Under the pieces are notes generated by a model. The model had not been told where the DNA came from and ran no database searches. It saw nothing but the letters and a program-made list of their open reading frames with translations. DNA of 64,000 nt, taken from assembly GCA_963828255.1 (NCBI GenBank), contig CAWHDZ010000021.1, forward strand, positions 64,001 through 128,000. The letters are read 5' to 3'. A program made the position numbers and the translations under genes. The DNA is from an uncultured delta proteobacterium. Its GTDB lineage: Bacteria > Myxococcota > Myxococcia > Myxococcales > Anaeromyxobacteraceae. How positions within the stretch are numbered: the stretch's first letter is position 1; each line of letters begins with the position of its first letter. Below, in pieces: positions 22,056-31,092 of this stretch.

Positions 22056-23875
22056 GCGCCCCCCTCCGAGTCCGCGGTGGAACGCATGGCCTCCTCGAAG
22101 GAGGTCGCCCCCGACGCCACCTTGAGGACGGCGTGCTCGCGGAGCGTGCGCAGCCCGTCCTGCCGTGCGGTGCGGGCCAGCACCTCGGGCGTCGCCGCCT
22201 CGGCGATGAGGTGGCGCAACCGGTGGTTCACGGCCAGGATCTCGTAGATCCCGGTGCGTCCGAAGTAGCCGGTGTAGCGGCACTTGGGGCAACCCAGGCC
22301 GCGCCGGGCGATGAGCTTGCCGGCGTGCTCCTCGGGGTGGCGCACGCCCAGCTCGGCCACCTGGTCGGCGGTGAGGAGCACGTCCTCGGCGCAGTTCGGG
22401 CACACCCCGCGGACCAGCCGCTGGGCGATCACGCCGGTGAGGGTGGCGGCGATGAGGAACCCCGGCACTCCCAGGTCGCGCAGGCGGGCCACCGCCCCCA
22501 CCGCGTCGCTGGTGTGGAGGGTGGTGAGCACGAGGTGGCCGGTGAGTGCCGCCTGGACGGCCTGCGTGGCGGTCTCCCCGTCCCGGACCTCCCCCACCAT
22601 GATCACGTCGGGGTCCTGGCGCAGGACGTGGCGCAGCGCCTCGGCGAAGCCCGTGCCGGTCTTGGGGTTGGCGGCGATCTGGTTGAACTCCTCGTGAACC
22701 ATCTCGATGGGATCCTCGATGGTCACGATGTTGATCTCGGGCGAGGCCAGCGCCTCCAGCGCCGAGTAGAGGGTGGTGGTCTTGCCCGACCCGGTGGGGC
22801 CGGTGACGACGACGAGGCCGTGCGGCCGCTCCAGCCAGCGCTCGAATCGGTCCCGCTCGTCGGGGAGGAAGCCCAGCTCGGAGAGGTCGCGCACCAGGAC
22901 CTGCTGGTCGAGGATGCGCACCACGATCTTGTCGCCAAAGGCGGTGGGAATCGTGGAGACGCGCAGCTCCATCTCGGTCTCGCCCCGCGCCGTGCGGATG
23001 CGCCCGTCCTGGGGGCGGCGGGCGGCGATGTCGAGGCGGCTCATGATCTTGAGCCGGTTGGCGATGGCGCCGTGCACGCTCTTGGGGATCCGGTAGACCG
23101 GGTGCAGGACCCCGTCGATGCGCATGCGGATGAGGGTCTCCTCCCGCCGGGGCTCGACGTGGATGTCGCTGGCCCGCTGCTCGAACGCGTAGTGGAAGAG
23201 GTACTCGACGGCGGCCACGATGGGCTCGCTCGAGGCCTCGAGCGCGTCCATGCCGGAGAGGTTGACGAACTGCTCCAGGTTGCTGACGTCCACCACCCCG
23301 CCGGTGACCTGGATCTGGGCTTCCTTGATCTGCTCCCTGAAGCCGTAGATCTCGGCGATGGCCCGGCTGATGTCGGACGGCGCGGAGAGCACCGGCTCGA
23401 TGGCCATGCCGGTGAGCCCGTGGAGGTTCTCGAAGAGCTCCTTGTCGAAAGGGTTGGCGGTGGCCACGACCAGCACGCCGTTCTTCTTCTCCAGCGGCAG
23501 CACCGCGTGCTTGCGGGCGAAGGGACGGGAGAGGGTCCGGGTGATGAGCTGCACGTCGAGCTTGAGGGGGTCGATCTTCACGTAGGGCAGGCCGATGGAC
23601 TCGGCCAGCGCCTTCGTGGCCCTGTCCTCGTCGACGCGATCGGCCTCGCGCCGTGCGTCGGAGAAGCCGAAGGAGGCCAGCAACTCGACGGGGGAGAGGT
23701 CGGCCCTGCGCAGCGCGCCACCTCCCCGCTGGGGGGTTTCCCGGAGCAGCCTGGCCCGCTGGACGTTCTCCCGTGCGGAGGCCGTGCGGTGGTCCTCCTC
23801 CCGCAGGATCCCCTTCTTCTGGAGCGCGTCGGCGACGAACTCCAGCGTGAAGTCGCTGGCGCGATGGCTTCGCAT
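22052..23875 (-). CDS. GspE/PilB-family secretion ATPase
   Basis: ASDIHVEP, PQDGR, GPTGSGKTTT, TIEDPIE, LRQDPDVIMVGEVRD, CPNC...CPKC. Confidence 0.93.
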   Translation of the reverse strand: MRSHRASDFTLEFVADALQKKGILREEDHRTASARENVQRARLLRETPQRGGGALRRADLSPVELLASFGFSDARREADRVDEDRATKALAESIGLPYVKIDPLKLDVQLITRTLSRPFARKHAVLPLEKKNGVLVVATANPFDKELFENLHGLTGMAIEPVLSAPSDISRAIAEIYGFREQIKEAQIQVTGGVVDVSNLEQFVNLSGMDALEASSEPIVAAVEYLFHYAFEQRASDIHVEPRREETLIRMRIDGVLHPVYRIPKSVHGAIANRLKIMSRLDIAARRPQDGRIRTARGETEMELRVSTIPTAFGDKIVVRILDQQVLVRDLSELGFLPDERDRFERWLERPHGLVVVTGPTGSGKTTTLYSALEALASPEINIVTIEDPIEMVHEEFNQIAANPKTGTGFAEALRHVLRQDPDVIMVGEVRDGETATQAVQAALTGHLVLTTLHTSDAVGAVARLRDLGVPGFLIAATLTGVIAQRLVRGVCPNCAEDVLLTADQVAELGVRHPEEHAGKLIARRGLGCPKCRYTGYFGRTGIYEILAVNHRLRHLIAEAATPEVLARTARQDGLRTLREHAVLKVASGATSFEEAMRSTADSEGGA

Positions 23876-23929
23876 GAACGCGAGGATCCTATCGCGACGC
23901 GCCCCGGGGGGCGAGGTTGCGACCCTTCC

Positions 23930-23980
23930 GCTATCTGGCGATTCCGCTGGTTCCGCGCGACCGCGCGGAGGTCAGATGGC
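23930..23980 (-). promoter_or_regulatory. Candidate bacterial SECIS element
   Basis: Stem TCCGCGC/GCGCGGA with loop GGTC; the loop starts after an 18-nt spacer 3' of the TGA. Possible lower stem GCCATCTG/CAGATAGC. Confidence 0.65.
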
Positions 23981-24184
23981 TCAACCGACCGGACCGCAGT
24001 TCGCCGAGGAGGCGGCCGAGCCGCCATCCCCGCCGGAGCGGGCCGCCGCCGGGCGGGAGATCTTCTTCTCGACCCGCTTCCCCTTGCAACTCGGGCAGCG
24101 GACGTCGTCCTCGTCGGAGCGGCGCATGACCAGCTCCTCGAAGGACCGGTCGCAGGCCTTGCAGGCGTACTCGTAGATGGGCAT
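23972..24184 (-). CDS. FmdB-family zinc-ribbon protein; probable selenoprotein if TGA 23981-23983 is Sec (otherwise it ends at 23981)
   Basis: MPIYEYACKAC...CPSC, Gly/Ser-rich tail, then CGPVG-TGA-GCC-ATC-TGA with a downstream hairpin. Confidence 0.85.
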
Positions 24185-24228
24185 CGGGAGTGGGAGCCCG
24201 CCGGGGTGGGAAGGGTTCGGCGCCGCCC

Positions 24229-24834
24229 CTACTTCTTCCGCTGGGTCTTCCCGCCGGACCTGGCCACCTTCTTCGGGGGCGGGGACATGTCCCCGCGGAG
24301 CCGGTCGGCCTCGCGATCGTAGAGCCGGATGGCCCCGCGAAGGACCTCCAGCGCCTCCGCCCTCCCCTGCGGCTCGCGGACCAGGACCTTCTTGTGCTCC
24401 AGCGCCTTGTAGTCCTCGAAGAAGCGCTTGAGCTCCCGCATCCGGTGGGTGGGCATCTCGGAGATGTCGGAGATGTCGGCGTACTCGGGGTCGTCGGCGG
24501 AGACGGCGACGAGCTTGTCGTCCTCCCCCTTGTCGTCCCGCATGCGCATCACGCCGATGACCTTGGCCTGCATGATGGCGAGCGGCACGATGTGCTCCTG
24601 GCAGTAGACCAGGATGTCGAGGGGGTCCCCGTCGTCGCAGTAGGTGCGGGGCACGAACCCGTAGTTGGCCGGGTAGTGGACGGCGCTGAAGAGGATGCGG
24701 TCCACGCGCAAGAGCCCGCTGGCCTTGTCCAGCTCGTACTTCACCTTGGAGCCGGTGGGGATCTCGATGATGGCCGGGATGGCCTCCTCCACGTAGCGGG
24801 GGAGTTCCACGTCGTGCCACGGGTGGAAGGACAT
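24229..24834 (-). CDS. ppa: Inorganic diphosphatase (family I)
   Basis: [40 protein letters not shown]. Confidence 0.96.
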
Positions 24835-24870
24835 TCGATTCTCCGGTGAGACGGGGAAGGCGGACCGGGG

Positions 24871-25761
24871 CTATCCCCGCTCCACCGGGGCTTCCTGCGT
24901 GACCTTGCTGCCGGGCGGCACCGCGTGGGTGAGCCAGACGTTTCCGCCGATGCTGGAGCCCTTGCCGATGACGATGCGACCCAGGATGGTGGCGCCCGAG
25001 TACATCACCACTTCATCCTCCACGATGGGGTGCCGGTCGATGCCCTTGATGGGTTTGCCGTGCTCGTCGAGGGGAAAGCTCTTCGCGCCCAGGGTCACGC
25101 CCTGGTAGATGCGCACGCGGTTGCCGATGACGCTGGTCTCGCCGATGACCACCCCGGTGCCGTGGTCGATGAAGAAGCGCTCCCCGATGCGAGCGCCCGG
25201 GTGGATGTCGATCCCGGTGATGGTGTGGGCGTACTCGGTGATGATGCGCGGGATGAGCGGCACGCCCAGGACGTGCAGCTCGTGGGCCATGCGCTGGTTC
25301 GTCACCGCGAAGATCCCCGGGTAGGCGAAGATGGCCTCGTCGCGGGTGCGCAGGGCGGGATCTCCCTCGAACGCCGCCTCCACGTCGCTCGCCACCAGGC
25401 GGCGCACCGCGGGCAGGCGGCCCACGAACTTCCGGGTGGCCTCGGAGGCGGCGACCGCGCAGTGGGCGCAGGCCTCGAAGTCGTGCTTCTCGGCGAAGGC
25501 GACGGCGCGACGGATCTCCTCGTCGAGCACCACCCGCATGCGGTCGAGGGTGGCGCCGATGTGGAAGGAGAGCGTGTCGCCGCGCAGGTCCTGGGTCCCG
25601 AAGTACCCCGGGAAGAAGAGCGACCGGACGTCCTCGACGATGGCGATGACCCGCTCGCGGGACGGCAGCACCATCCGGTAGTGGCCGGACAGCACGTGCT
25701 GGGCCTCGCGGCAGAGCTCGTCCACGATGGGCTGGATGGGGGAGTCGTCGGGCGGGGTCAT
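24871..25761 (-). CDS. cysE: Serine O-acetyltransferase (CysE/EpsC type)
   Basis: [38 protein letters not shown]. Confidence 0.92.
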
Positions 25762-27782: not shown

Positions 27783-29004
27783 GGTCGGGGGAAGTGTAGC
27801 CAAGAACCTACGGCCGGGACAGGACGCCTCAGCGCATCGAACCGTACGTTCCGCGGACCTTCGGCCAGATGGGGCGTGCGCAAACGCCTCTATTGACAGC
27901 GTTTCCGTGAGATTTGCTTCCCGTGAAGCGGCGGCTGAAGGAATGCCCCTGTCGCTTCGCCACGGGCTCGCTGGGGCCCTTCCGGAATTCCTGGCGAGGT
28001 TCGAGATCTTCCGGCGGAAGGACGCGGCGGAGGGGATCCTCGTGCGTTCCAGGAGGCTCGAAACTCACGTGCGACAGTACTTTCATGACCGACGACACCC
28101 TTCTCGAGGCCCGCTCCTTCCACTCCCGGCTCATCGATCTCCTCCGGGTCGAGTTCGCCTCCCTGGGCGCCTTCCTCGAGGCGCTGGCGGAGTTCGACCG
28201 GCGAAAGCTCTTCCGCACCCTCGGCCACGCGGACCTCTTCGCCTATCTCCACAAGGGGCTGAAGCTCTCCCGCGCGGCGGCTCATCACCGGCGCGCCGCC
28301 GCCTGGCTGGTCCAGCGATTCCCAGAGGTTCTGCACCCGATCCGCGAGGGGAACCTGTGCTTCACAACAGCGGCGGAGCTGAAGCCCCGGACGGTGGTGC
28401 CGACGAGGACGGTTGTCACCCGGGTGGAGACGTCTCCGCCGGTGGGCCCGGTCGCGGAGGTGAAGCGGACGGTTCCGGAAATTCGCCCAGGCGAACTTTG
28501 GGCGCCCCGGACGGAGGTGGAGCGGACAGTCGTCGAGCCGATGACCGCCACGTCGAGCCGGATGCACGTGACCGTGTCGCGGGAGTTCCTGGCTCTCTTG
28601 AAGAAGGCAAAGGCGGGGGACTCCCACCGCAATCCAGGAGCGTCCGACGAGGAGGTCCTCACCGCGGCGCTGCTGTTGCTCATCGAGAAGCAGGCGAAGC
28701 GGAAGGCCTGCGTGCCGGCCGAGGTGAAACGTGAGGTCGTGAAGCGGGACGGGGGCAAGTGCCAGTGGAAGTTGGCCGATGGAGGAGTCTGCGGGGCGAC
28801 GGTGCGGCTGGAGGTGGACCACGTGGTTCCGCGCGGGAGGGGTGGCCCGTCGACGGTCGAGAACTGTAGATTGCTCTGCATGGGGCACAACCTGGAAGCG
28901 GCGCGGCAGGCGTACGGCGACGCGCACATGGACCTGTTCACCAGGGGTGGAGCAACCGGCGTCCCCCCACTGGCCAGGGAGGAGATCGTGCCGTACGGCG
29001 CCCC

Positions 29005-31092
<2,088 letters not shown>

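Follow-up and report, generated by a model that had tools for sequence, protein, structure and literature searches.

An FmdB-family zinc-ribbon gene on the minus strand of the window (the whole stretch of 64,000 nucleotides that was analysed) is predicted to encode a selenoprotein. The first in-frame TGA, at which the open reading frame seems to end, is very likely read as selenocysteine (Sec), with two residues added beyond it. All the sequence tests that were run agree with the prediction of a protein whose third residue from the C terminus is Sec, and they support it strongly. The selenocysteine reading is backed by the presence of sel machinery in the genome, by a TGA that is invariant in relatives whereas the following stop varies, by a covarying SECIS-like hairpin and by distant homologs with Cys at the corresponding place. 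On these grounds the C-terminal C-x4-U selenoprotein proposed in the preliminary description stands.

The open reading frame starts at an ATG at position 24184 and reaches its first TGA (23983-23981) directly after the residues CGPVG. The codons GCC and ATC follow, and then a second in-frame TGA at 23974-23972, three codons on, as the frame had been read earlier. The coding sequence, delimited with TIGR02605, PF09723 and the orthologs, covers 23975..24184 on the minus strand and would give a 70-residue product (Sec68, then Ala-Ile), with the true stop codon at 23972..23974 (TGA here; TGA, TAG or TAA in relatives). The protein is a member of the FmdB zinc-ribbon family: TIGR02605 is matched at 60.3 bits (curated cut-off 31.3) and PF09723 at 55.1 bits (cut-off 34.4), and the two N-terminal CxxC knuckles are present. 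TIGR02605 and a sub-cut-off NF053663 were the only NCBIfam matches.

The zinc-ribbon domain (residues 1-40; 24065..24184, minus strand) has the pattern CxxC-x18-CxxC, with Cys8, 11, 30 and 33 invariant in 21/21 aligned orthologs. AlphaFold2, run with 21 sequences, models it with confidence as a ribbon of three strands and a single short helix (pLDDT 84-90). A Foldseek search returned no match at E <= 0.001, the weak rows being mostly zinc ribbons and rubredoxins. The ribbon is followed by a Gly/Ser/Ala-rich linker (23999..24064, minus strand) whose length and sequence differ between orthologs. Linker and tail are of low confidence (pLDDT 48-56) and predicted disordered, as in the zinc ribbon with a flexible tail envisaged earlier. 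The tail carries the motif C-G-P-V-G-U (Cys63-x4-Sec68; 23981..23998, minus strand), in which C63, G64, P65 and G67 are invariant in 21/21 sequences.

The genome (G000; 4.3 Mb, 71% GC, 99% complete) encodes selA, selB and selD above cut-offs, selD having an in-frame TGA of its own, and a tRNA-Sec matched by Rfam at 78 bits on contig C23. The set selA/selB/selC/selD, which the preliminary description had proposed to look for, is present in full, all on contigs other than that of the zinc-ribbon gene and in an assembly with 6.6% contamination. A second tRNA-SeC called by ARAGORN (G000 C30:93412-93504) is absent from the Rfam RF01852 matches and is probably a false call in a coding region. Matches to selA occur in 36/36 genomes of the family and in 15/24 other genomes of the order; since every tested family genome has selA, co-occurrence of the gene with selA does not discriminate. 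The family is probably Anaeromyxobacteraceae-like, and its named relatives carry the label deltaproteobacteria.

We parsed 58 distinct genes from 72 loci; the 14 loci left out were duplicates, the other FmdB types L034 and L036, the unparsed L134, and L035, which fits the pattern by loop-anchored comparison. Protein searches without codon constraint yielded 39/58 of the genes, and a DNA pattern allowing only TGA, TGC or TGT yielded the other 19/58. The codon after the motif (23981..23983 here) is TGA in 58/58 genes, including 39/39 of those found without codon constraint. The stop three codons later is TGA in 36, TAG in 19 and TAA in 1, and is lost by frameshift in 2, the orthologs L023 and L037, which have longer tails. 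On a coding-DNA tree of these genes, which come from one family and as kin are not independent, the first TGA requires 0 changes, against 13-25 at neighbouring positions; the minimum is at least 18 for the second stop (the 2 frameshifts included), 16 for the upstream Gly and 20 for Pro. The DNA pattern matched in 52/73 family genomes and 1/227 other genomes, always with TGA, and none of the 54 pattern matches had TGC or TGT at the Sec codon. With the protein query, no ortholog was found in 9/36 family genomes, nor in 8/11 further ones.

Constraint extends beyond the TGA. The first residue after it is Ala, Gly or Ser in 58/58 genes, and the second is Ile in 45, Phe in 4, Val in 4, Leu in 3, Thr in 1 and Ser in 1. 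The codons of both residues vary while their identity is constrained, with Ile, Phe, Val or Leu at the second position in 56/58. The possibility that the second TGA is another Sec codon was rejected, this codon being TAG or TAA in 20/58 genes and the hairpin lying too close to it.

The upper hairpin (23952..23969, minus strand) consists of a 7-bp stem (23969-23963 / 23958-23952) closed on a GGTC loop (23962-23959), and was assigned as SECIS-like from its fold, from the orthologs and from its likeness to the fdhA element. It lies 3' of the stop codon, its loop beginning after an 18-nt spacer from the first TGA. Loop, stem and spacer had all been described correctly, and the hairpin covaries in orthologs. 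The additional lower stem GCCATCTG/CAGATAGC suggested with them fared otherwise: it occurs in the minimum-energy fold of this genome's sequence but is absent from the consensus of 29 orthologs. The fdhA gene of the same genome shares the 18-nt spacer and the GGTC-led loop. Its element has a stem that is interrupted and falls inside the coding sequence, whereas that of the zinc-ribbon gene has a perfect 7-bp stem past the stop and no conserved lower stem. Uninterrupted stems are also found in a SelW-like gene (GGTC loop at 21 nt) and a peroxiredoxin gene (GGAC loop at 22-23 nt) of this genome.

As a single sequence, the hairpin has a fold that beats shuffles by no more than a modest margin (z -1.1 to -2.1 in four windows), and an 84-nt window folds differently (z -0.1). 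Because it is unremarkable on its own sequence, evidence that it is more than chance was sought in relatives and in the genomic background. A GGTC tetraloop on a stem of at least 5 bp, 15-23 nt downstream, follows 0/1284 TGA and 2/1083 TAG codons that end coding-like stretches in this genome, a count that leaves out the gene's own TGA (below the coding cut-off). In contrast to this background, a hairpin with a GG-led loop and a stem of at least 5 bp stands 16-21 nt downstream of the TGA in 56/58 orthologous genes, the exceptions being L125 (at 31 nt) and L196 (none by the GG-loop/stem rule). The loop is GGTC in 54/58. In 29 aligned loci, 96.4% of stem cells are paired, and L035, which is off by one column, accounts for most of the unpaired ones. 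Both sides have changed in 30 cells, a count that kinship inflates, against 10.8 +/- 2.1 in shuffles, of which 0/500 were as high. By loop-anchored comparison, pairs 2, 6 and 7 of the seven stem pairs swap yet remain paired. When the gene is relocated, the hairpin travels with it, with its invariant loop at SECIS spacing. The ortholog alignment proposed earlier therefore yields a TGA conserved in 58/58, a covarying hairpin and, in distant homologs, Cys. Orthologs with TAA or TAG at this codon, with neither aligned Cys nor a conserved hairpin, had been named as evidence to the contrary; none were encountered among the 58 genes.

A further in-frame TGA was seen in a gene for a signal-peptide-like protein (L333:650-1423, minus strand; G000 C31:140341, with a duplicate at C32:4406). 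It falls at residue 28 (AFG-U-GV), a hairpin with a GGTCC loop comes 18 nt later, and the frame runs on for about 230 codons; the first 100 aa have no NCBIfam match. This protein is possibly another, unlisted selenoprotein.

Cys counterparts and database entries bear on the same codon. Among the close orthologs, 0/58 have Cys at the Sec codon. The Cys/Sec pairing thus rests on homologs that are about 37-49% identical, in short and gappy tail alignments: the Sec column is Cys in 9/10 non-Sec homologs hand-picked for alignment, and two database proteins, P0141 and P0185, end in C-x4-C-G-I, like the read-through product. Standard gene callers had been expected to truncate the protein, and indeed 67/70 database relatives are cut at CGP[VI]G. 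One entry, P0049, ends CGPVGWAV with Trp at the Sec site (known from the protein record alone). The tail contains C-x4-C in 20 of the best 150 cluster representatives; GF[S/T/G/R]-like ends are seen in 58 of the 150 and C-x3-G ends in 26.

At the DNA level, other FmdB genes with multi-Cys tails use any of the stops and hardly ever carry a hairpin (L052 is an exception by rule). In genes with single-Cys tails, such as L034, L049, L156, L165 and L249, a TGA followed by 1-2 codons and another stop is combined with a GGT-led hairpin, which indicates that the phenomenon reaches beyond the C-x4-U subfamily. Outside the family, 33 FmdB genes were parsed from 42 loci, and 3 of them, all in selA-positive genomes, have TGA plus hairpin; in 7 selA-negative genomes the figure is 0/8, a sample too small to carry much weight. 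We also observed FT/FS/FR/FG-TGA ends with 1-2 further codons, a second stop and SECIS-like hairpins at L034, L049, L156, L165, L208, L210 and L249, and FmdB types of the form C-[AG][PA]-x-x-x-TGA at L202, L203, L205, L207 and L219.

The genes around the zinc-ribbon gene lie on the same, minus strand, as described previously: a cysE-like gene (25761-24871) and ppa (24834-24229) upstream, and a GspE/PilB-type ATPase gene (23875-22052) followed by an AAA ATPase gene downstream. Across the 58 loci, mostly with 1.5-kb flanks, gspE lies downstream in 50, ppa upstream in 34 and cysE in 31. A TAGGAT -10-like box (23886..23891, minus strand) stands before gspE, outside the selenoprotein gene, and such a box occurs at most 35 nt from the gspE start in 48/50 loci. 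This arrangement points to a separate promoter for gspE, so that lying next to the GspE/AAA pair does not argue for a functional link. A functional connection of the zinc-ribbon gene with GspE/AAA, ppa or cysE is unsupported, and the gene order beside gspE is probably inherited synteny. In relatives, the box has the form TA[G/C][A/G][A/C]T (48/50), and its closeness to the gspE start suggests a short-leader transcript. Eight of the 58 genes lie away from gspE: L133, L138 and L140 are beside Pfam-assigned rhodanese, NrfD or C_GCAxxG_C_C genes, L120 is by a sigma-54 activator, L032 by cytochromes, and L033 and L139 by unrelated genes. A plasmid tblastn with the protein gave no match. Metatranscriptomes shared less than 0.2 of words, and in X1 and X2 short contigs of relatives lay over the tail, informative on neither strand nor transcription. 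Elsewhere in the window, the N-terminal part of an ORF at 27914-29287 (minus strand), between uvrB and uvrC, is by eye similar to ORFs at G000 C7:205530 and in L035; it is probably a repeated mobile or HNH-type gene.

Upstream of the zinc-ribbon gene, a promoter-like motif, yGAA[C/T]CCTT-N12-GGCTC[C/T]CAC (24190..24219, minus strand), ends 5 nt before the ATG, and the gene appears to have a leaderless start. The motif precedes the FmdB start in 52/54 other orthologs, at 5-9 nt from the ATG in 44 and at 31-43 nt in 8. With a weight matrix built only from the sites of other orthologs, the site at the zinc-ribbon gene scores 30.0 bits, joint top in the genome. Nine sites of at least 20 bits occur in the genome; its reversed sequence has 0, and other spacings yield 0-1. 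A sigma-70 promoter scan at the locus gave 0 matches. The sites considered were those of the whole G000 genome, that of the window, and those at L275-L279, L281-L287 and L322-L332.

The top eight sites lie before the zinc-ribbon gene, the genes of two rhodaneses, a thioredoxin, a thioredoxin-like protein, YgaP and cytochrome P460, and that of an unassigned 79-aa protein; the ninth has no ORF downstream. An FAD oxidoreductase that weakly matches sulfide-quinone reductase comes after one of the rhodaneses, a thioredoxin-reductase-like gene after the thioredoxin, and a CcdA/DsbD membrane protein after the thioredoxin-like protein. Four of the top sites fall in or beside a thiosulfate/polysulfide-reductase-like cluster. 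This sulfur-redox cluster (L275; G000 C7:132001-151000) comprises a thiosulfate/polysulfide-reductase-like molybdoenzyme, YeeE/YedE transporters, a sigma-54 activator, cytochrome P460, TauE, a rhodanese, thioredoxins and their reductase, a methyltransferase, a radical SAM protein and a DUF6125 protein. Weaker sites precede another thioredoxin and, by eye, OsmC-like, TrxB-like and YHS-domain proteins, the rest being noise-like.

In 10 relatives, the strict motif pattern gave 18 sites versus 0 in the control. Six precede the zinc-ribbon gene, three rhodaneses (one with C-x4-U), two the thioredoxin-like gene and three small unknowns; the others lie, one each, before a HesB-like gene with an in-frame TGA, a CoA-disulfide-reductase-like gene, YgaP and a homolog of the 79-aa protein (several of these downstream genes were assigned by eye). 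A motif-bearing rhodanese has C-x4-C in this genome and C-x4-U in the relative G036. Sec-type genes under the motif are therein represented by the rhodanese of G036 (L282:1570-1950, plus strand) and the HesB-like gene of G020 (L281:1536-1859, plus strand), each with TGA at a Cys-like position. Sites without an obvious thiol role precede cytochrome P460 and three small unknown proteins, or lie inside a beta-lactamase-family gene. Because rhodanese, thioredoxin, YgaP and Sec genes have the motif in common, we infer that it marks a thiol/persulfide-stress regulon; our searches found no published account of the motif or its regulon.

A candidate for the corresponding sigma factor is an ECF sigma with a fused C-terminal zf-HC2 domain (L288:3638-4474, plus strand; G000 C18:3638-4474; P0229). 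Its gene is present in 70/76 family genomes and adjoins the zinc-ribbon gene at L133 and L138. Only at these two loci does the motif occur within about 1.5 kb of the ECF gene; it was not found in 28/28 other located loci. The motif thus gives no clear signal of autoregulation, and the sigma assignment is only a lead.

We propose the following mechanism. SelB carrying Sec-tRNA would bind the hairpin just past the stop, Sec68 would be inserted and translation would end two codons later, steps in which we have high confidence. The product would have 70 residues and a tail, predicted to be flexible, that ends in Cys-Gly-Pro-Val-Gly-Sec-Ala-Ile. The motif probably serves as promoter for an alternative (ECF-type) sigma factor, co-expressing the gene with rhodaneses, YgaP, thioredoxin and its reductase, CcdA, the CoA-disulfide-reductase-like enzyme and the HesB-like selenoprotein; that this factor is the ECF protein with the fused zf-HC2 domain we put at slightly below an even chance. 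Cys63 and Sec68 may form a redox pair. Their cycling between a reduced form and a selenenylsulfide or persulfide, with the tail reducing or carrying sulfane sulfur, is a proposal for and against which the odds seem equal; the same holds for its other part, in which the four-Cys ribbon binds zinc as a scaffold. Taken as a whole, the account in which a Sec tail serves as a redox arm for thiols and persulfides during sulfur or thiol stress is somewhat favoured.

The most conservative alternative is that the first TGA is an ordinary stop, that a 67-residue protein ends at CGPVG, and that the hairpin is a terminator, a stability element or a repeat fixing the bases near it. The ends of the 67/70 database relatives, the lack of a close Cys ortholog, the position of the hairpin in an intergenic region before a second, putative promoter, and the fact that TGA is the commonest stop of the genome (1284 versus 1083 TAG) would all fit. 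However, an ordinary stop would not be expected to remain unchanged when the stop after it has undergone at least 18 changes, nor amino-acid-level constraint to continue past it, nor an invariant loop to keep SECIS spacing and move with the gene on relocation. Moreover, 23800-24900 contains 0 terminator-like sites (GC stem plus U tract), 23600-24400 gives 0 Rfam matches, and in other FmdB genes the hairpin is found mainly with single-Cys TGA-plus-extension tails, not with multi-Cys tails. We regard this reading as very improbable.

If Sec is inserted, the function of the tail could still differ from that proposed. The Cys63/Sec68 tail might be a soft-metal ligand (a Cu, Hg, Zn or Fe-S carrier), a pared-down version of the multi-Cys tails of other FmdB proteins, in a metal chaperone or buffer of the same regulon. 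Many homologs have 3-6 tail Cys, with C-x4-C inside CxxC-x4-CxxC-H-like ends (20 of the top 150 representatives carry C-x4-C); YHS-domain proteins and the HesB-like protein also lie behind the motif; HypA and rubredoxins are among the weak fold neighbours (E > 0.2); and the SAO/HgcAB paper (bioRxiv 10.1101/2022.07.06.499078) ties Cys/Sec motifs near C termini to metals. Yet only two chalcogen ligands are left in the C-x4-U subfamily, and the strong targets of the motif are for the most part genes of sulfurtransferases and thioredoxins, which makes a metal-binding tail unlikely. Still less probable is a redox-switched regulator whose tail would serve as the sensor and whose partner would be, for example, the sigma factor, RNA polymerase or the adjacent GspE/PilB ATPase. 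The family label 'putative regulatory protein', a weak fold likeness to RNA polymerase zinc-ribbon subunits, and adjacency to the zf-HC2 ECF gene in 2 loci and to gspE in 50/58 speak for it; against it, none of the fold matches reaches significance, the gene seldom lies beside the ECF gene, a separate -10-like box precedes gspE (48/50), and 8/58 genes have left gspE.

The analysis adds a predicted selenoprotein subfamily that annotation shortens by three residues in 67/70 relatives. The shared promoter-like motif gives a testable hypothesis for a family for which we found no paper giving a function, and a 70-residue protein with a near-terminal Sec is easy to make and assay. Given the several single-Cys-tail FmdB genes with TGA, extension and hairpin, many more database entries are probably truncated. 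Extending the redox-arm account, single-Cys-tail FmdB proteins might form a large uncatalogued class of C-terminal selenoproteins that includes the C-x4-U subfamily, the present protein being a selenium-tipped persulfide carrier or reductant in an undescribed sulfane-sulfur/thiol-stress regulon under a one-component ECF sigma with a fused zinc-binding domain. We consider this broader view doubtful, but if true it would provide a first functional handle on the FmdB family.

Two FmdB selenoproteins were predicted from GOS marine metagenome reads by Zhang and Gladyshev 2008 (PMC2398784). They belong to the same TIGR02605/COG2331 ribbon family and, as here, have an in-frame TGA with a bacterial SECIS-like element. 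In contrast, as described there, their Sec lies in the first CxxC knuckle and their tail has no terminal Cys motif, whereas the present protein keeps the four ribbon Cys, has Sec third from the C terminus in C-x4-U, and has its hairpin beyond the stop. The GOS set comprises 2 reads, against 58 genes across one family for the C-x4-U subfamily. FmdB selenoproteins had been said to be reported from deltaproteobacterial lineages; in the literature consulted, the published forms are these two marine reads, with Sec in the first knuckle. The relevant parts of PMC9312934 and PMC13188914 list FmdB as U/CxxU or UxxU, the GOS form only, and PMC13188914 treats a different Sec position as a distinct subfamily; the present Sec position, differing from the published ones, thus defines a different subfamily. 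It is absent from Table 1 (119 entries) of PMC13188914, and FmdB is mentioned in none of the portions searched of deep-Sep (PMC12013277) and BSepDB (PMC13326102). We found no paper on tail-Sec FmdB proteins, and an existing listing elsewhere is possible. The name FmdB is also applied to an unrelated enzyme (PMC11227280), and an FmdB-family gene is differentially expressed under acid and oxidative stress in a mycobacterium (PMC11022373), a weak hint as to function.

Closer in architecture are the C-terminal selenoproteins SaoC (Cys-Sec-COOH) and KCU-star/DUF466 of Haft and Gwadz (bioRxiv 10.1101/2022.07.06.499078), who report that PGAP is unable to predict C-terminal Sec. Their criteria are at least 10 examples and TGA in 100% at the site; here TGA is found in 58/58. 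Both proteins share with the present gene a Sec at or near the C terminus, a close second stop, a perfect 7-bp stem, a G-led loop 3' of the stop and a miss by annotation. They are unrelated proteins with adjacent CU, whereas the zinc-ribbon protein has C-x4-U plus two residues and does not match their NCBIfam models. C/U-x4-U spacing as seen here also occurs in the TsoB rhodanese-type selenoproteins (UxxxxU; PMC13188914 Table 1). There the motif forms a loop of the folded rhodanese domain, whereas ours is on a predicted disordered tail, and no homology is claimed. TsoB is the best NCBIfam match of the C-x4-U rhodanese of G036, at 53 bits versus a cut-off of 805.

The recoding mechanism of the gene is to be seen as ordinary, and the candidate regulon has a known parallel in type. 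In thiol-stress ECF regulons with ZAS anti-sigma factors (SigR-RsrA type), the targets include thioredoxin and thioredoxin reductase. The candidate regulon is alike in having thioredoxin and thioredoxin reductase targets and a candidate sigma factor with a zf-HC2 domain. It differs in that zf-HC2 is fused to the sigma factor, that the targets are rich in rhodaneses, that the link between sigma factor and motif is a candidate one, and that the SigR consensus is distinct from the yGAA[C/T]CCTT-N12-GGCTC[C/T]CAC motif.
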